Shown here: positions 20,928-56,843 of the stretch, piece after piece
Layout: the number at the start of each line of letters is the position of its first letter
Numbering within the stretch: position 1 is the stretch's first letter
Assembly: GCF_055900595.2 (NCBI RefSeq)
Contig: NZ_CM148325.1
DNA length: 64,000 bases
Direction: 5' to 3' (one strand)
Program-made: the position numbers and the translations under genes
Notes under the pieces: generated by a model
What the model was told of the DNA's origin: nothing
What the model saw: the letters and a program-made list of their open reading frames with translations, nothing else
Databases searched by the model: none

Positions 20928-21125
20928 TCTGATGCGACGCTGGCCTGATAAGACGCGGGCAGCGTCGCATCAGGCATCGTGTGCAAATGTCGGATGCGGC
21001 GGGAACGCCTTATCCGACCTACAAGACCTTACATATCAACGTGTTAAAATTGTAGATGCTGATAAGACGCGCCAGCGTCGCATCGGGCATCTTGTGCAAA
21101 TGTTGGATGCGGCATAAACGCCTAT
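20928..21125. repeat. REP/BIME cluster (several REP-like palindromic units)
   Basis: Repeated units CTGATGCGACGCTGGC...GCCAGCGTCGCATCAGGC and GGATGCGGCG..AACGCCTTATCCGACCTAC between yacG and mutT; overlaps the last mutT codons. Confidence 0.75.
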
Positions 21126-21532: not shown

Positions 21533-21562
21533 ATAAAAAAGGCGCAGAATCCTGCGCCTTTT
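21533..21562 (-). terminator. intrinsic terminator in the 59-nt secA-mutT gap
   Basis: On the minus strand: GGCGCAG - loop - CTGCGCC followed by TTTTTTATAGG (plus-strand A6 at 21535-21540). Confidence 0.65.
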
Positions 21563-21579
21563 ACTTCAACTGTTAGCTT

Positions 21580-24285
21580 TTATTGCAGGCGACCGTGGCA
21601 CTGCTTGTATTTTTTACCAGAACCGCACGGACAAGGATCATTACGTCCAACTTTGCGTTCACCGGTTTGTGCCGCCAGTGCAGCTGCGGCTGCAGAGTCG
21701 TCATCCTGATGGCTAAGCTGCTGCATTTGCGCTAAACGCTCGGCTTCCATACGACGCTGTTGTTCCAGCTCCTCAACCTCTTCAGGCATACGTACCTGGA
21801 CTTTGCTCAGCGTGCTGATGACTTCATATTTCAGCGACTCCAGCATCGCTGCAAACATGGAGAACGATTCACGTTTGTATTCCTGCTTCGGATCTTTCTG
21901 TGCATAGCCACGCAGGTGGATACCTTGACGCAGATAATCCATCGCCGCCAGGTGCTCTTTCCACAGGGAGTCAAGCGTTTGCAGCATGACGCCTTTCTCG
22001 AAGTGACGCATCATCTCAGCGCCAACCACTTCTTCTTTACGCTGATACACTTCGATGGACTGCGCCAGAATACGCTCACGCAGCGTCTCTTCATGCAGTT
22101 CTGGCTCTTTGTCCAGCCACTCGGCAATCGGCAAATCGAGGTCGAAATCGTTCTTCAGACGTTCCTGCAGCCCCGGAATATCCCACATTTCTTCCAGCGA
22201 CTGCGGCGGAATGTAGGCATCGATGGTCGCTTTGAACACATCTTCACGAATGCTGTTGATGGTATCGCTCACATCGCTGACATCCAGCAGTTCATTACGC
22301 TGGGAATAAATAGCGCGACGCTGATCGTTAGCCACGTCATCATATTCCAGCAGTTGCTTACGAATATCGAAGTTACGGCTTTCAACTTTACGCTGAGCGT
22401 TGGCAATCGCTTTTGTCACCCACGGGTGCTCGATGGCTTCGCCTGGTTTCATACCCAGTTTACGCATCATGCCGGAAACACGGTCAGAAGCAAAAATACG
22501 CATCAGCGCATCTTCCATCGACAGGTAGAAACGGGAAGAACCGGCATCCCCCTGGCGCCCAGAACGACCGCGTAACTGGTTATCGATACGACGAGATTCG
22601 TGACGTTCTGTACCGATGATATGCAGACCACCTGCAGCCAGTACCGCATCGTGACGCACCTGCCAGTCGGCTTTGATTTTTTCAATTTGCTCTGCGGTCG
22701 GATTTTCCAGCGCGGCAACTTCTGCCTGCCAGCTACCACCGAGCACAATATCTGTACCACGACCCGCCATGTTAGTCGCGATAGTCACCGCCGCCGGATA
22801 ACCCGCTTGTGCAACAATCGCTGCTTCGTTAGCGTGGAATTTGGCGTTCAGAACGTTGTGTTTGATACCGGCTTTGGTCAGTTCGTTTGACACCAGCTCA
22901 GATTTTTCGATGGAGATAGTACCCACCAGCACCGGCTGGCCTTTCGCAGTACGTTCTTTGATATCTTCAATGATCGCCTGAATTTTTTCCGCTTCAGTCA
23001 TGTAGACCAGGTCCGGCAGATCTTTACGAATCATTGGACGGTTGGTCGGAACAACGACGGTATCCAGCTTATAGATGGAGCTGAATTCGAAAGCTTCGGT
23101 ATCAGCAGTACCGGTCATCCCCGCCAGTTTTTCATACAGACGGAAGTAGTTCTGGAAGGTGATCGACGCCAGCGTCTGGTTTTCGTTCTGGATCTGTACA
23201 CCTTCTTTCGCTTCCACTGCCTGATGCAGGCCATCGGACCAACGACGTCCCTGCATGGTACGACCGGTGTGTTCGTCAACGATGATAACTTCACCATCTT
23301 TAACGATGTAGTCGACGTCTCGGGTAAACAGCGCATGAGCGCGCAGCGCCGCCGTTACGTGGTGCATCAGCATGATGTTGGCCGGAGAGTACAGAGACTC
23401 CCCTTCATCCATGATGCCTTCTTTCACCAGCAGTTCTTCAATCAGCACCAGACCACGTTCGGTCAGGTTCACCTGGCGAGATTTTTCGTCCACCGAGAAG
23501 TGGCCTTCGCCCTGGAAGGTTTCGGAGTCTTCTTTTTCCTGACGGATCAGGTGCGGAATAATTTTATTCACGCGTTTATACATTTCCGAGCTGTCTTCTG
23601 CCGGGCCGGAAATGATCAGCGGTGTACGCGCTTCATCGATCAGGATGGAGTCCACTTCGTCCACCAGCGCATAGTGCAGTTTACGCTGTACACGTTCTTC
23701 AGGGCTGAACGCCATGTTATCGCGCAGGTAGTCAAAGCCGTATTCGTTGTTCGTACCGTAAGTGATGTCAGCTGCGTAAGCTTCACGCTTCGCCGGTGCT
23801 GGCATACCCGGCAGGTTGATACCGACTGTCAGGCCGAGGAATTCAAACAGCGGACGGTTGTTTTCGGCGTCACGTTGCGCCAGGTAGTCGTTGACGGTAA
23901 CAACGTGTACGCCCTTACCGGTTAATGCGTTCAGGTAAGCAGGCAGCGTTGCGGTCAGGGTTTTACCTTCACCGGTACGCATTTCCGCGATGCAGCGTTC
24001 GTTAAGAACCATACCGCCGAGTAACTGAACGTCGAAGTGACGCATACCAAAGACGCGCTTACTTGCCTCACGCACTACAGCGAAAGCTTCTGGGATCAGA
24101 TTTTCCAGCACTTCGCCTTTTTCCAGACGTGCACGAAACTCTGCAGTTTTCCCTTTAAGTTCTTCGTCGGAGAGTTTTTCCATCTCCGGTTCCATGGCAT
24201 TGATAATGTTGACGACTTTGCGCATCCGGCGCAGGGTGCGATCGTTACGACTACCGAAAACTTTAGTTAATAATTTGATTAGCAT
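21580..24285 (-). CDS. secA: preprotein translocase ATPase SecA
   Basis: ORF track 901 aa; Walker [10 protein letters not shown]-terminal zinc finger [14 protein letters not shown]. Confidence 0.95.
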
Positions 24286-26107: not shown

Positions 26108-27259
26108 TTAATCAGCTTGCTTACGCAGGAATGCTGGGATATCCAGATAATCCGGCTCTTTCGCAGTTTGCGGCGCATTGTCATTCACGACTTTAGCAAC
26201 CGGCTTCTGCTCCTGGGTCAGCGGAGCCATCCCGTGCTGCTGGTAGCGATCCATCACTGGCTGCTGAACCTGCTTATTGGTCACCAGAGTGATTTCAGGA
26301 CGTTTGTCCATACCGATACCTGTCGCAACAACAGTTACGCGCAGCTCGTCATTCATATCCGGGTCAAGAGAAGTACCGATAACGACAGTTGCGTTGTCGG
26401 ATGCAAATGCACGGATGGTGTTACCTACCGTTTCGAACTCATCCAGACGCAGGTCGAAGCCCGCCGTGATGTTAACCAGCACGCCGCGCGCGCCAGACAG
26501 ATCGATATCTTCCAGCAGCGGAGAGGAGATAGCCATTTCAGCAGCTTCTTCCGCACGGTCTTCGCCGCTCGCCACACCAGAACCCATCATTGCGTAGCCC
26601 ATTTCAGACATTACGGTACGTACGTCTGCAAAGTCCACGTTCATCAGGCCTGGACGAGTAATCAGTTCAGCGATACCTTGCACAGCACCTTTCAGTACAT
26701 CGTTCGCTGCGCCAAATGCATCCAGCAGGGAGATACCGCGGCCCAAGACTTTCAGCAGTTTGTCGTTAGGGATAGTGATCAGAGAGTCCACATGCTTGGA
26801 CAGTTCAGTGATCCCCTGCTCAGCGAATGCCATACGCTTCTTGCCTTCAAAGTTGAAAGGCTTAGTCACGACAGCAACGGTCAGGATCCCCAAATCTTTT
26901 GCCACTTCAGCGACAACTGGTGCTGCACCAGTACCGGTACCACCACCCATACCCGCAGCAATAAAGACCATGTCTGCACCTTCCAGCGCCGCACGCAGTG
27001 CATCGCGATCCTCATCAGCCGCATTACGGCCAACTTCTGGATTTGCGCCAGCTCCCAGTCCTTTGGTGATACCGCTACCGATTTGAATCGTCTGTCCAAC
27101 CGCTGTTTTACGCAGCGCTTGTGCATCGGTATTTACCGCGAAGAATTCAACACCTTCAATGCGCTCGCGCACCATGTGTTCAACAGCATTACCGCCGCCG
27201 CCGCCGACGCCGATGACTTTAATCACCGCGTCATTGGTAAGTTCCATTGGTTCAAACAT
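26108..27259 (-). CDS. ftsZ: cell division GTPase FtsZ
   Basis: ORF track 383 aa; tubulin signature GGGTGTG. Confidence 0.96.
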
Positions 27260-27319
27260 AGTTTCTCTCCGATTTGTGCCTGTCGCCTGAGGCCGTAATT
27301 ATCGTCGACCTCATAAAAA

Positions 27320-28582
27320 TTAAAACTCTTTTCGCAGCCAACTATTGAGTCGCTTGATCCACGAGCCAACTGATGCTGTAACACGTTTTTCTACTTCAGC
27401 TTCACCGTTAAGATGTGACTCTTTCCCATAGTGAAGCAATCCCACCGCCGTCGAATAATACGGCTCCTGAGCATAATCCGTTAAACCGGTAATGTTCAGC
27501 GGCGCGCCGATACGCACTTGCGTATGAAACACGCGCTGAGCACAGGCTGCAAGACCTTCGATCTGCGCTGCGCCACCAGTTAAAACAATGCCTGCCGCCA
27601 GGTGATGTTTAACCCCTTGTTGGCGAAGCTTTTCCTGCAACTGCAATATCTCTTCGTTGACCAGGTTGAGCAGCTCGGTATAGCGCGGCTCGATCACCTC
27701 TGCCAGGGTCTGACGTTGCAGACTCCGCGGTGGACGACCGCCTACGCTCGGCACTTCCACGCTCTCATCTTTTCCAACGATGGAACCCAGCGCACAACCG
27801 TGGCGAACTTTAATCGCTTCGGCGTCGCTTGGCGGCGTGCCAAAGGCGTAAGCGATATCACTGGTCACGACATTGCCAGCATAAGGAATTACCTTAGTGT
27901 GGCGCAATGCCCCACCGGTATAAACGGCGATATCCATTGTACCACCACCGATATCGACGACGCAGACACCCAGTTCACGTTCATCTTCCGTCAATACCGA
28001 ATAACTTGATGCCAGTCCGGCAAATATCAGTTGGTCAACTTTCAGCCCACAACGTTCAACCGCTTTGACGATGTTTTTCGCCATATCGTTGTGACATGTG
28101 ATCAGGTGCACTTTTGCCTGCATCCGCACGCCCGAAAGTCCTACCGGATTCTTGATCCCTTCCTGATAGTCAATCGCATACTCTTGCGGGATCACATGCA
28201 GCACACGATGCTCATCGCGCACACGCACTGATTTCGCGGTATGGACGACGTTTTCCACATCTTCTTGCGTCACTTCTTCTTCAGAAATAGGCACCATACC
28301 AATTTCATTCTGGCAGCTGATGTGCTTACCAGAAAGCGCCAGATATACCGAAGAGATCTGACAATCTGCCATCAATTCTGCCTGGTCAATGGCGCGTTGT
28401 ACGCACTTGACCACGGATTCGAGGTCGTTCACCCCGCCTTTATCCATACCACGCGACGGGCAGCTGCCCACGCCAATGATATTGACCATACCGTCGGGCA
28501 GAACTTCCCCTACTAAAGCGGCAACCTTCGCGGTACCAATCTCCAGTCCTACTACCAGTTTTCTGTCCGTCGCCTTGATCAT
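27320..28582 (-). CDS. ftsA: cell division protein FtsA (actin-like ATPase)
   Basis: ORF track 420 aa. Confidence 0.95.
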
Positions 28583-48194: not shown

Positions 48195-48852
48195 ACTTAA
48201 CTCCACTGTCACACTTAACTCCCTTTCCCTTATTGGAATGCAGAGAAATAATCCTCGAGAATATGATTTATCATGCATATAAAATAAGAAAAAGGAAAAT
48301 GAGAAAAATTAGGAAAACATAAAGATACGGGTTCTTATAAAAACAGAACCCATTGCCGAGTAAAGAGTCATTTACCGCAGCATAATAATCCATAATGTTT
48401 TTGTTGCGAAAACAATCTAATCATAACTACCGCGAATACTCAATCATCCACAAAATGGATTAAATGTGCTTTTTTAATAATTAATTTATATGTTTAATGC
48501 ATTAATTCTTAACATTAATCGAACAATAATATTCACCAAATGAATATCAAAAAATTAGCAAAACATATAATTCAATACAAATCATCAAGATAGGTTTTGT
48601 AACGCGTGCATTTTATCCCCCTTTTCCTCGTTGATTAGATGCAAAAATTTATTCTGAAATATGTCAACCGATGAAAAGCGTCGGTGGTTAAGCAGAAATT
48701 AATATCGCTTGTTTTAACCACCGCAGCACAATTAGCTAATTTGACGAATGCAGAACTCACTCTGGCGGAACGTTTTTGTTGCGTCAGGGTTGACATCCGT
48801 TTTTGTATCCAGTAACTCTAAAAGCATATCGTATTCATCTGGAGCTGATTTA

Positions 48853-48939
48853 ATGACTCACATCGTTCGCTTTATCGGTCTACTACTACTAAACGCATCT
48901 TCTTTGCGCGGTAGACGAGTGAGCGGCATTCAGCATTAA
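48853..48939 (+). CDS. leuL: leu operon leader peptide (28 aa, four consecutive Leu codons)
   Basis: GGAG SD then ATG 48853; [28 protein letters not shown]; Leu codons CUA x4 at 48880-48891. Confidence 0.88.
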
Positions 48940-48954
48940 GCCAGCACGCAGTCA

Positions 48955-48990
48955 AACAAAAAACCCGCGCCATTGCGCGGGTTTTTTTAT
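48955..48990 (+). terminator. leu attenuator (intrinsic terminator)
   Basis: A6-CCCGCGCC-loop-GCGCGGG-T7 at 48958-48988, between leuL and leuA. Confidence 0.88.
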
Positions 48991-49031
48991 GCCCGAAGCG
49001 AGGCGCTCAAAAAGAGACAAGGACCCAAACC

Positions 49032-51694
<2,663 letters not shown>

Positions 51695-51696
51695 TC

Positions 51697-53713
<2,017 letters not shown>

Positions 53714-53757
53714 TTTGTAAACCGTCCGGCACTCAATCGCCAAAAAGAAAAAAGCCA

Positions 53758-53973
53758 GCAGATAATCACTGCTGGCGTGGCGATTAACACCAATACTCAG
53801 TCACACATGATGTCCGCAAATCAGTAGTCAGAATGACTCCCCTCCCACTGCATCAGCTCTTCAAGCATGGTTAATCGTTGTGGGACGCTTAACCAACGCA
53901 ACCAGCACAACGTCGCTGTCGCGGTAAAATAGTGCTGATAAAACTGACGCATGGGGCACCTCCTTGCTTCATC
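53758..53973 (-). ncRNA. sgrS: dual-function small RNA SgrS (glucose-phosphate stress; base-pairs with ptsG mRNA)
   Basis: Minus strand begins GATGAAGCAAGGAGGTGCCCCATG..., contains the GAGUAUUGGUGUUAAUCG seed region and ends in hairpin GCCAGCAG..CUGCUGGC + U6 (plus 53758-53789); divergent from sgrR. Confidence 0.85.
53821..53952 (-). CDS. sgrT: SgrT small protein (43 aa) encoded within SgrS
   Basis: AGGAGG SD then ATG 53950-53952; MRQFYQHYFTATATLCWLRWLSVPQRLTMLEELMQWEGSHSDY; nested in larger track ORF 53821..54120. Confidence 0.8.
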   Translation of the reverse strand: MRQFYQHYFTATATLCWLRWLSVPQRLTMLEELMQWEGSHSDY

Positions 53974-54040
53974 GTTAGGAATTATTGACTTAATATAGGG
54001 AAAATAAAATTGCTGACTTTTGCGCAGGAGTTCCCCTTTT

Positions 54041-55696
54041 ATGCCATCCGCTCGTCTGCAACAACAGTTCATCCGCCTGTGGCAATGCTGCGAGGGTAAA
54101 TCGCAGGACACAACGCTCAACGAACTAGCGGAGTTATTGAGCTGCTCCCGTCGTCATATGCGCACCCTGCTCAATACCATGCAGGATCGCGGCTGGCTGA
54201 CGTGGGAAGCGGAGGTCGGGCGCGGTAAACGCTCACGTTTAACATTCCTCTATACCGGGCTGGCGCTTCAGCAACAGCGAGCAGAGGACCTGCTGGAGCA
54301 GGATCGTATCGATCAGTTGGTGCAACTGGTTGGCGACAAAGCGGCTGTGCGGCAAATGCTGGTTTCTCATCTGGGGCGTACCTTCCGCCAGGGGCGGCAC
54401 ATCCTGCGCGTTCTCTACTATCGTCCGTTGCGCAATCTGCTGCCCGGCAGTGCATTGCGCCGTTCCGAAACCCATATCGCCCGGCAAATCTTCAGTTCGC
54501 TAACGCGCATAAATGAGGAAAATGGGGAACTGGAAGCAGACATCGCCCACCACTGGCAGCAAATATCACCGCTTCACTGGCGCTTCTTTTTGCGTCCAGG
54601 AGTCCATTTTCATCATGGTCGTGAACTGGAAATGGACGACGTGATCGCCTCTTTAAAACGAATCAATACGCTGCCGCTCTATTCGCATATTGCGGACATT
54701 GTGTCGCCGACGCCCTGGACGCTGGATATCCATCTCACGCAACCGGACCGCTGGTTACCGTTACTGCTGGGGCAAGTTCCGGCGATGATCCTGCCACGAG
54801 AATGGGAAACCCTCAGTAACTTTGCCAGCCATCCCATCGGCACCGGTCCGTATGCGGTGATCCGCAACAGCACCAATCAACTGAAAATTCAGGCATTCGA
54901 TGACTTCTTCGGTTATCGCGCATTAATCGACGAAGTAAATGTCTGGGTTCTGCCAGAAATTGCCGACGAGCCAGCCGGCGGTCTGATGCTAAAAGGGCCG
55001 CAGGGCGAGGAAAAAGAGATTGAAAGTCGGCTGGAGGAAGGTTGCTACTATTTACTGTTCGACAGCCGCACCCATCGTGGGGCGAATCAGCAAGTCAGGG
55101 ACTGGGTAAGTTATGTGCTTTCTCCAACTAATCTGGTCTATTTCGCCGAGGAACAATACCAGCAACTCTGGTTTCCAGCCTACGGGCTGTTGCCGCGCTG
55201 GCATCATGCCCACCCGGCGCAGTGCGAAAAACCTGCCGGGCTGGAAAGCCTCACCCTGACCTTTTATCAGGATCATATTGAGCATCGGGTGATTGCCAGG
55301 ATCATGCAGCAGATTCTGGCAAGTCATCAGGTCACACTTGAAATTAAAGAGATCAGCTACGATCAGTGGCACGAAGGAGAGATCGAGAGCGATATCTGGC
55401 TTAACAGCGCCAACTTTACGCTGCCGCTGGATTTTTCGCTGTTCGCGCACTTGTGCGAGGTGCCGCTGCTCCAACACTGTATTCCGATCGACTGGCAAGC
55501 CGACGCCGCCCGCTGGCGCAATGGCGAAATGAATCTGGCGAACTGGTGCCAGCAACTGGTCGCCAGTAAAGCAATGGTGCCACTTATCCACCACTGGCTG
55601 ATCATTCAGGGGCAACGCAGTATGCGCGGTCTGCGTATGAACACCCTCGGCTGGTTCGATTTTAAATCCGCGTGGTTTGCACCACCGGATCCATGA
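54041..55696 (+). CDS. sgrR: transcriptional regulator SgrR (HTH + solute-binding-like domain)
   Basis: Track ORF 54020..55696 (TTG) trimmed to [15 protein letters not shown]... (551 aa) at ATG 54041. Confidence 0.92.
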
Positions 55697-55727: not shown

Positions 55728-55855
55728 CGCCGTTCTCAACGGGGTGCCACGCTGCCGCGTGCGCTGAGAAAATACCCGTCGAACCTGATCCGGATAACGC
55801 CGGCGAAGGGATTTGAGGCTCCTTCTCAAGTCCTTTGCCACTCTTCTTTGAGGTG
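55728..55855 (+). promoter_or_regulatory. TPP riboswitch (THI-box) in thiBPQ leader
   Basis: GGGGTGCC...CTGAGA...ACCCGT.GAACCTGATCCGGATAACGCCGGCGAAGGGA conserved THI-element seen at 55741-55811, directly upstream of thiB. Confidence 0.88.
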
Positions 55856-55859
55856 CAAA

Positions 55860-56843
55860 GTGTTAAAAAAATATCTTCCCCTGCTGTTGCTCTGTACAGC
55901 ACCCGCTTTCGCTAAACCCGTTCTGACTGTTTATACCTACGATTCCTTCGCCGCCGACTGGGGGCCAGGTCCGGTGGTGAAAAAAGCCTTTGAAGCCGAC
56001 TGTAATTGCGAACTGAAACTGGTGGCGCTGGAAGATGGCGTTTCGCTTCTCAACCGTCTGCGGATGGAAGGCAAAAACAGTAAAGCCGATGTGGTGCTGG
56101 GGCTGGATAACAATCTGTTAGATGCCGCCAGCAAAACCGGGCTGTTTGCTAAAAGCGGTGTGGCAGCGGATGCCGTTAACGTTCCCGGCGGCTGGAATAA
56201 TGACACTTTCGTCCCGTTTGATTACGGCTATTTCGCCTTCGTCTATGACAAGAACAAACTGAAAAATCCGCCGCAAAGCCTGAAAGAATTGGTTGAAAGC
56301 GATCAAAACTGGCGGGTGATTTATCAGGATCCGCGTACCAGTACGCCGGGCCTGGGCCTGTTGTTGTGGATGCAAAAAGTCTATGGCGATGACGCCCCAC
56401 AAGCCTGGCAGAAGCTGGCGAAGAAAACGGTCACGGTCACCAAAGGCTGGAGCGAAGCCTACGGCCTGTTTTTAAAAGGCGAAAGCGATCTGGTACTGAG
56501 TTACACCACCTCTCCGGCTTATCACATTCTCGAAGAGAAGAAAGATAACTACGCCGCCGCGAACTTCAGCGAAGGTCACTATTTGCAAGTGGAAGTCGCC
56601 GCCCGCACCGCTGCCAGCAAACAGCCGGAGCTGGCGCAAAAATTCCTCCAGTTTATGGTTTCTCCGGCTTTTCAGAATGCGATCCCAACCGGCAACTGGA
56701 TGTATCCGGTGGCAAACGTCACGCTGCCTGCCGGTTTTGAAAAATTGACCAAACCGGCAACCACGCTGGAGTTCACGCCAGCCGAGGTGGCGGCACAACG
56801 TCAGGCATGGATTAGCGAATGGCAACGCGCCGTCAGCCGTTAA
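55860..56843 (+). CDS. thiB: thiamine/TPP ABC transporter periplasmic binding protein
   Basis: Track ORF 55848..56843 (TTG); recognised N-terminus (M)LKKYLPLLLLCTAPAFA signal peptide begins at GTG 55860 with GAGG SD; 327 aa. Confidence 0.88.
   Translation: MLKKYLPLLLLCTAPAFAKPVLTVYTYDSFAADWGPGPVVKKAFEADCNCELKLVALEDGVSLLNRLRMEGKNSKADVVLGLDNNLLDAASKTGLFAKSGVAADAVNVPGGWNNDTFVPFDYGYFAFVYDKNKLKNPPQSLKELVESDQNWRVIYQDPRTSTPGLGLLLWMQKVYGDDAPQAWQKLAKKTVTVTKGWSEAYGLFLKGESDLVLSYTTSPAYHILEEKKDNYAAANFSEGHYLQVEVAARTAASKQPELAQKFLQFMVSPAFQNAIPTGNWMYPVANVTLPAGFEKLTKPATTLEFTPAEVAAQRQAWISEWQRAVSR

Follow-up and report, generated by a model that had tools for sequence, protein, structure and literature searches.

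Recovery of the leuL leader and its predicted transcription attenuator from an Escherichia coli genome sequence

Introduction

The protector, preemptor and terminator were defined in Salmonella, whose leu leader (RF00512) has the same architecture and the same invariant GC hexamers as the leader described here. About a third of the peptide positions differ between the two, as do the outer stems of the protector. The S. typhimurium leu leader contains three CUA codons (PMC1183508), and that of S. enterica subsp. arizonae has MSHIVRFTGLLLLNAFSVRGRRVGGIQH, with four CTA.

The same logic, in which a short ORF with tandem cognate codons precedes the structural genes, is found in trpL, hisL, pheL, thrL, ilvL and ivbL (PMC1183508; PMC9291695). 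These leaders share with leuL the 1:2, 2:3 and 3:4 pairings, an intrinsic terminator and a coupling pause hairpin (PMC1183508; PMC9291695). They differ from it in the regulatory amino acid and in sequence, and leuL stands out among them in that all of its control codons are the rarest synonymous codon.

Leucine operons of Firmicutes use T-box leaders. A leader of this type likewise senses the charging of tRNA-Leu and switches between terminator and antiterminator. Unlike leuL, however, it binds the uncharged tRNA directly and needs no translation.

Experimental work on E. coli leuL has documented ribosome pausing at its four CUA codons, and this pausing raises leuA RNA (bioRxiv 10.1101/2021.05.27.446073). 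In the same study, the terminator was associated with a 29-fold drop in RNA, reduced to 4-fold when ribosomes paused, and a change of CUA to UUA in a reporter lowered the response from 11.5-fold to 2.7-fold (10.1101/2021.05.27.446073). A passage in Elf and Ehrenberg that discusses Carter et al. (1986) gives a corresponding result for Salmonella, in which a CUA-to-CUG change lowered sensitivity. These authors argue for CUA as the best control codon, and their modelling adds to the evidence that read-through responds to tRNA charging (PMC1183508). A NusA-sensitive pause has been described near the end of leuL, with a protector (pause) hairpin upstream of it (PMC9291695), and leuL is among the sequences most sensitive to leucine starvation (PMC3783181).

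Here we describe a leader of this kind in a 64,000-nucleotide stretch of DNA (the window; NCBI RefSeq assembly GCF_055900595.2, contig NZ_CM148325.1). We conclude, with a probability of about 97%, that the element is the leuL leader and ribosome-mediated transcription attenuator of the E. coli leuLABCD operon. It is an already known and ordinary, textbook element that belongs to a curated and experimentally studied family.

Identification of the leader and its occurrence in E. coli genomes

The features of the leader and of the genes that follow it are given below, with the basis for each.

48790..48818, + strand: predicted leu promoter (-35 TTGACA at 48790-48795, 17-bp spacer, -10 TAACTC at 48813-48818); read from the sequence
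48841..48844, + strand: Shine-Dalgarno GGAG of leuL, 8 nt before the ATG; read from the sequence
48853..48939, + strand: leuL, 28-codon leu operon leader peptide ORF; translation, Pfam, NCBIfam and E. coli annotation
48880..48891, + strand: four consecutive CUA Leu control codons (codons 10-13); read from the sequence
48839..48951, + strand: protector structure; MFE and centroid of the free leader
48906..48970, + strand: antiterminator (preemptor), GCGCGG at 48906-48911 with CCGCGC at 48965-48970; folding
48958..48988, + strand: intrinsic terminator (attenuator); folding, Rfam alignment and conservation
49032..50603, + strand: leuA (2-isopropylmalate synthase); NCBIfam NF002084 (1047 bits), Pfam HMGL-like and LeuA_dimer, annotation
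Start at 50603: leuB, directly after leuA

The leader matches the Rfam family RF00512 (Leu_leader) over the entire model (positions 1-148 of 148, window 48839-48988, + strand) with 147.5 bits (E = 1.6e-32), against a gathering threshold of 50 bits. The LeuL peptide matches Pfam PF08054 (76.5 bits, cut-off 25) and NCBIfam NF007397 (80.9 bits, cut-off 59), in both cases over residues 1-28 of 28. Together with the three-state fold recovered in 73-76 of 77 leaders (see below), the matches to RF00512, PF08054 and NF007397 bear out the first-pass annotation, which had called the element a textbook transcription attenuation device. The placement of leuL in that annotation is exact to the base, and the peptide it read there is identical to LeuL of K-12.

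The 401-bp stretch 48700-49100 is present in 5399 of the 5426 complete E. coli genomes. It is 100% identical to several of them, in which the features at this place are annotated as leuL and leuA. The remaining 27 complete E. coli genomes are without the leuL-leuA query region, and 3 of the 5400 places that match belong to plasmid-classed records. Identity to 48700-49100 is at least 99% in only 187 of the 5399 genomes; therefore, the lineage of the window is one of the less common in E. coli. EC42405 (bovine) and Z0117EC0005 (dog) are among the best matches to this stretch.

E. coli K-12 MG1655 has the same gene order, with leuO divergent and then leuL-leuABCD. Its leuL (b0075, 83622-83708) has the same peptide, the same four CUA codons and the same protector, antiterminator and terminator sequences. 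Relative to MG1655, the leader transcript carries two substitutions in the window, both with T in place of C: one is in the 5' UTR, at 48832, and the other, at 48930, is synonymous (ATT vs ATC, Ile26). Position 48930 is unpaired in the predicted states. Position 48832 lies just 5' of the Rfam model and is paired in one masked fold only. Further differences from K-12 occur upstream of the -35 element, and one occurs between the terminator and leuA. The leuO-leuL intergenic DNA at 48700-48790, just upstream of the -35 element, differs from K-12 at 7 of ~80 positions.

The leader ORF and its leucine codons

We read leuL from the ATG at 48853 to the TAA at 48937-48939. A mechanical ORF list contains a 63-aa ORF at 48748-48939 instead, because the list takes the first ATG after a stop. 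The true start of leuL is the internal ATG at 48853, since the GGAG lies 8 nt upstream, the annotation places the start here, and the ATG column is kept in 78 leaders. In the alignment of orthologous leaders, a GGAG/GGGG/GAGG column is mostly kept at the Shine-Dalgarno site. Small antisense ORFs over the leader (e.g., 48858-48929 and 48872-48973, - strand) are mechanical listings, without supporting evidence.

Leucine codons 10-13 of leuL are all CUA, as the first-pass annotation had it, and correspond to four CTA at 48880-48891. This run is the sensing site for charged tRNA-Leu. The fifth Leu codon (codon 18) is TTG. The same annotation had described CUA as rare, and this holds: CTA is the rarest Leu codon in the window, where it accounts for 57 of the 1733 Leu codons (3.3%) in 38 long ORFs. 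Given four Leu and the codon usage of the window, the probability of four CTA in a row is about 1.2e-6. Two in-frame CTA in a row are absent from all 38 long ORFs of the window, and the 12-mer of the CTA run, CTACTACTACTA, occurs once in the 64 kb when both strands are searched.

Codons 21 and 22 of leuL (48913-48918) are the rare Arg codons AGA and CGA, which make up 1.3% and 5.2% of the Arg codons of the window, respectively. The AGA codon (48913-48915) belongs to the 3' strand of the protector (GGUAGAC), and most orthologues have it too. The CGA at codon 22 is specific to E. coli and E. albertii.

Promoter and operon context

The TTGACA hexamer and its spacing to a hexamer of the TA(A/C/T)C type are kept in nearly all of the 77 orthologous loci. 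Transcription probably starts at about 48824-48826, ~27 nt upstream of leuL. A consensus scan for promoters and terminators (48300-49100) missed both the leu promoter and the attenuator. The promoter was missed because the rule wants T at the last -10 position, which here is C, and the terminator was missed because an A-U extension of the stem uses up the U run, so that no U tail is left. Both misses are thus a product of the scan rules and not evidence of absence. The attenuator hairpin lies between an A run and a U run, and would resemble a terminator on either strand.

The divergent ORF upstream of the leader was identified as LeuO (NF007063, 572 bits), which gives the gene context leuO (divergent), leuL, leuA and leuB. 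The start of leuA lies 43 nt past the U run and 92 nt past the leuL stop codon. leuA is the first structural gene under the control of the attenuator.

Alternative structures of the leader RNA

The free leader folds into protector plus terminator at -55.7 kcal/mol (z = -5.06, 200 dinucleotide shuffles). The inner part of the protector pairs GUCUACU at 48878-48884 (codons 9-11) with GGUAGAC at 48910-48916, and CGCA at 48894-48897 with UGCG at 48905-48908. In this fold it sequesters five of the six bases of GCGCGG (48906-48911). The outer helices of the protector, which reach 48839 and 48951, are less conserved.

The terminator begins 19 bases past the leuL stop codon and is a 13-bp stem (AAAAAACCCGCGC, loop CAUU, GCGCGGGUUUUUU) with a 7-bp GC core. 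The hairpin alone has a predicted energy of -20.2 kcal/mol. A hairpin followed by seven U had been proposed as the attenuator, and both parts were located, with the stem at 48958-48970:48975-48987 and the U7 run at 48982-48988. The end that had been noted for the element, 48990, takes in two extra bases, AT, past the U run.

The antiterminator has as its core the GCGCGG:CCGCGC pairing, enclosing an irregular inner stem in which 48914-48927 pairs with 48940-48953. Two segments of the leader thus have two mutually exclusive partners each. GCGCGG (48906-48911) can pair either with the CUA/CGCA region or with CCGCGC (48965-48970), and CCGCGC can pair either with GCGCGG or with the 3' arm of the terminator. 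The first-pass annotation had named the absence of mutually exclusive hairpins as the result that would speak against it; such hairpins were found, and they share exactly these two hexamers, GCGCGG at 48906-48911 and CCGCGC at 48965-48970.

We modelled the stalled ribosome with an assumed footprint whose edge lies 14 nt past the first base of the A-site codon. With this footprint size, the edge falls at 48894-48903 for CUA codons 1-4, just short of G48906. At equilibrium, the terminator still forms when the complete leader is folded with a ribosome mask, and for this reason nascent RNA was folded without the 3' arm of the terminator, i.e., in the kinetically relevant state. Folding of the whole nascent RNA around the footprint gave the GCGCGG:CCGCGC antiterminator for CUA codons 1, 2 and 4. 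For CUA codon 3, the MFE of the whole nascent RNA was not the antiterminator, as pairing across the ribosome won. Such pairing is physically doubtful, so the folds were repeated with only the RNA 3' of the ribosome, and here the antiterminator was the MFE (-19.9 kcal/mol) for all four CUA codons. When the ribosome is placed at the stop codon, the inner protector forms again behind it and the core of the terminator stays free.

For the complete leader, the terminator is favoured (-34.1 kcal/mol, vs -20.6 kcal/mol with the antiterminator forced). That the terminator is always favoured once its 3' arm is present implies, from these folding models, that antitermination must be a kinetic, co-transcriptional outcome, which is beyond what folding can demonstrate. 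Kinetic, co-transcriptional antitermination is the accepted view for this class of attenuators.

Among 1000 dinucleotide shuffles of 48895-48957, 21.7% showed antiterminator-like pairing to the GC core, and 2.8% also left the core free in ribosome-free nascent RNA. On this single sequence, the shuffle result for the switch is suggestive: it is modestly unusual and not compelling.

Conservation of the leader across Enterobacterales

With LeuA as the only bait (83-99% identity), we retrieved 80 loci from bacterial contigs (one genome per species). Among the groups covered are Escherichia, Citrobacter, Enterobacter, Klebsiella/Raoultella, Salmonella, Serratia, Erwinia, Pectobacterium, Pantoea, Brenneria and Buttiauxella. 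In 79 of the 80 there is a leader ORF with a run of three or four Leu codons; in the 80th, the DNA upstream of leuA is only 93 nt long. The codons of the Leu run in these 79 leaders are CTA in 273 of 286 cases (95%), CTT in 7 and CTC in 6, and the CTT and CTC codons occur only at the end of the run.

One scaffold of Affinibrenneria salicis (NZ_VYKJ01000001.1) encodes leuA twice, at 239768-243742 and 831387-835361, with identical leader peptides. The two copies are oppositely oriented, with ~590 kb between them, and appear to be a duplication of the leu leader together with leuA.

The alignment comprises 77 distinct leaders. CTACTACT, the CGC of AACGCA, GCGCGGT, ACCCGCGC and CGCGGGTTTTTTT are invariant, whereas most peptide positions vary. 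The three GC hexamers show little or no variation, and neither do the terminator core (CCCGCGC/GCGCGGG) and the U run; the terminator is conserved in all 77 leaders. Among the invariant bases are the third positions of Arg19 and Gly20, which are synonymous, and that of codon 18, where the third base is fixed while the amino acid is Leu, Val, Met, Ala or Glu. Invariant third bases in spite of a varying amino acid point to selection on the RNA, and not on the peptide, at these positions, judging from the aligned sequences.

Pairing within the leader is also conserved. Over the 77 leaders, protector and terminator positions are paired in 78.5% of cases, compared with 38-48% when the partners are slid. 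The inner protector helices reach 97-98%, and one of their pairs is compensatory (U-A to C-G, 20 sequences). The outer helices, whose pairs come from the E. coli MFE, transfer poorly, with only 60-69% pairing. The six-pair core of the antiterminator is invariant and can form in 77 of 77 leaders, and nine pairs of its inner stem are changed on both sides. The cores of the antiterminator and terminator never vary, so covariation cannot test them. RNAalifold on the MAFFT alignment recovered only the invariant inner protector and the terminator, and gave no compensatory pairs. When the leaders were folded one by one, the terminator formed in 75 of 77, GCGCGG was sequestered in 76, and the antiterminator formed under a stalled ribosome in 73. 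In the simple stalled-ribosome fold of the S. enterica subsp. arizonae leader, the MFE was not the antiterminator.

Other features of the window

Four further matches to RNA families were identified at the Rfam gathering level.

9555-9668, + strand: tp2
20942-21019, - strand: naRNA4
21535-21604, - strand: STnc40
55730-55829, + strand: TPP riboswitch, upstream of an ORF at 56064

At 53714-54040, SgrS (Rfam RF00534, 228 bits, 53747-53973, - strand) was found directly after leuD. In K-12, setA presumably lies between sgrS and leuD. Of 5399 E. coli genomes, 2159 match a junction query (53500-54200) in one continuous piece, and in the others the match falls into two separate places, which suggests a polymorphism in the presence or absence of setA at the sgrS-leuD junction.

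There is also a full-length match (105 bits, 27251-27340, - strand) to the Rfam family PssrA ('plasmid-encoded Shigella sRNA A'). It looks to lie inside the chromosomal cell-division gene cluster, near the ftsA/ftsZ junction by its offset from leuL. This placement is odd for a family that is described as plasmid-encoded.

Discussion

A leader ORF, tandem regulatory codons, a terminator and, from folding and an assumed ribosome footprint, mutually exclusive pairings and the geometry of a stalled ribosome, which are features of an attenuator of this class, were all found at this locus. We infer, or take from the literature, the stalling of the ribosome, the kinetic competition and the role of the protector in pausing.

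In the proposed mechanism, when no ribosome is present or when the ribosome has moved past the Leu codons, the CUA region would pair with GGUAGAC, and CGCA with UGCG, to form the protector. The protector would sequester GCGCGG (48906-48911) and leave the downstream CCCGCGC free to form the terminator hairpin with GCGCGGG. With the terminator formed, RNA polymerase would stop at the U7 run, before leuA. When charged tRNA-Leu is scarce, in particular the minor tRNA that reads CUA, the ribosome would stall on the four CUA codons. Its footprint would then cover the 5' strand of the protector and end just before 48906, so that GCGCGG would be free. GCGCGG could pair with CCGCGC once this is transcribed, forming the antiterminator; no terminator would then form, and transcription would read through into leuABCD.

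The reason for the near-universal use of CUA is less settled than the identity of the element. The conservation data fit a contribution both from pairing with GGUAG and from tRNA rarity, and do not tell the two causes apart. We tentatively consider that the CUA run and the three GC hexamers may be frozen across Enterobacterales by a double or triple constraint (decoding, protector pairing, and antiterminator/terminator pairing), with codon rarity and RNA pairing jointly explaining the universal CUA. As part of this joint constraint, the repeated CUACUACUA would give the protector several sliding registers against GGUAG. If true, this would refine the textbook mechanism and would not be a new one.

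It seems rather improbable that the CUA run is kept mainly as a strand of the protector (CUACU:GGUAG), with rarity secondary and other Leu codons able to sense alike if paired. Several observations nonetheless agree with such a role. Little or no variation occurs in CTACTACT and in GGTA(G). Codons 10-11 are paired with GGUAGAC in the E. coli MFE, and codons 12-13 with GGUA in the alignment consensus; because the registers differ, the CUA repeat appears to offer sliding registers. CTT and CTC are confined to the end of the run, and the third base there has no partner in those registers; the rare AGA at 48913-48915 is likewise dictated by GGUAGAC. However, each register pairs no more than a single third-position A out of three or four, so pairing alone does not explain all of them. 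Replacement of CUA by CUG in Salmonella (as cited in a passage of PMC1183508) and by UUA in E. coli (10.1101/2021.05.27.446073) lowered the sensitivity or the response, which also argues against this role as the main one, although both swaps alter the pairing as well.

A very different explanation would be that leuL is an independent small gene with a constitutive terminator behind it, and that leuA is transcribed from its own promoter, with no conditional read-through. At -20.2 kcal/mol the terminator is indeed strong, and it dominates thermodynamically in all folding states. Yet the consensus scan found no promoter-like site on the + strand in the 43 nt that separate leuA from the terminator, the alternative pairing of the terminator's 5' arm is kept in 77 of 77 leaders, and the run of Leu codons is specific to the product of the operon. 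The published 29-fold drop in RNA, relieved to 4-fold on pausing at CUA (10.1101/2021.05.27.446073), also contradicts constitutive termination, and we regard this explanation as extremely improbable. A translation-independent leader (a T-box, riboswitch or protein-mediated antiterminator), with the small ORF incidental, is just as hard to credit, given that Leu_leader is the only Rfam family at gathering level at the leader, that Rfam gave no T-box match in the window, that the ORF, its ATG and a Shine-Dalgarno-like purine-rich stretch are kept in 79 of 80 loci with most amino acids varying, and that ribosome footprints on leuL have been published (10.1101/2021.05.27.446073).

The ribosome-mediated attenuator of leuLABCD is thus the reading we retain, and its recovery from raw sequence is of value as a positive control. 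The use of CTA at 95% of positions in the Leu run and the fixed GC hexamers across 77 species illustrate RNA-level selection inside a coding sequence; this is of minor didactic value and raises no new question.
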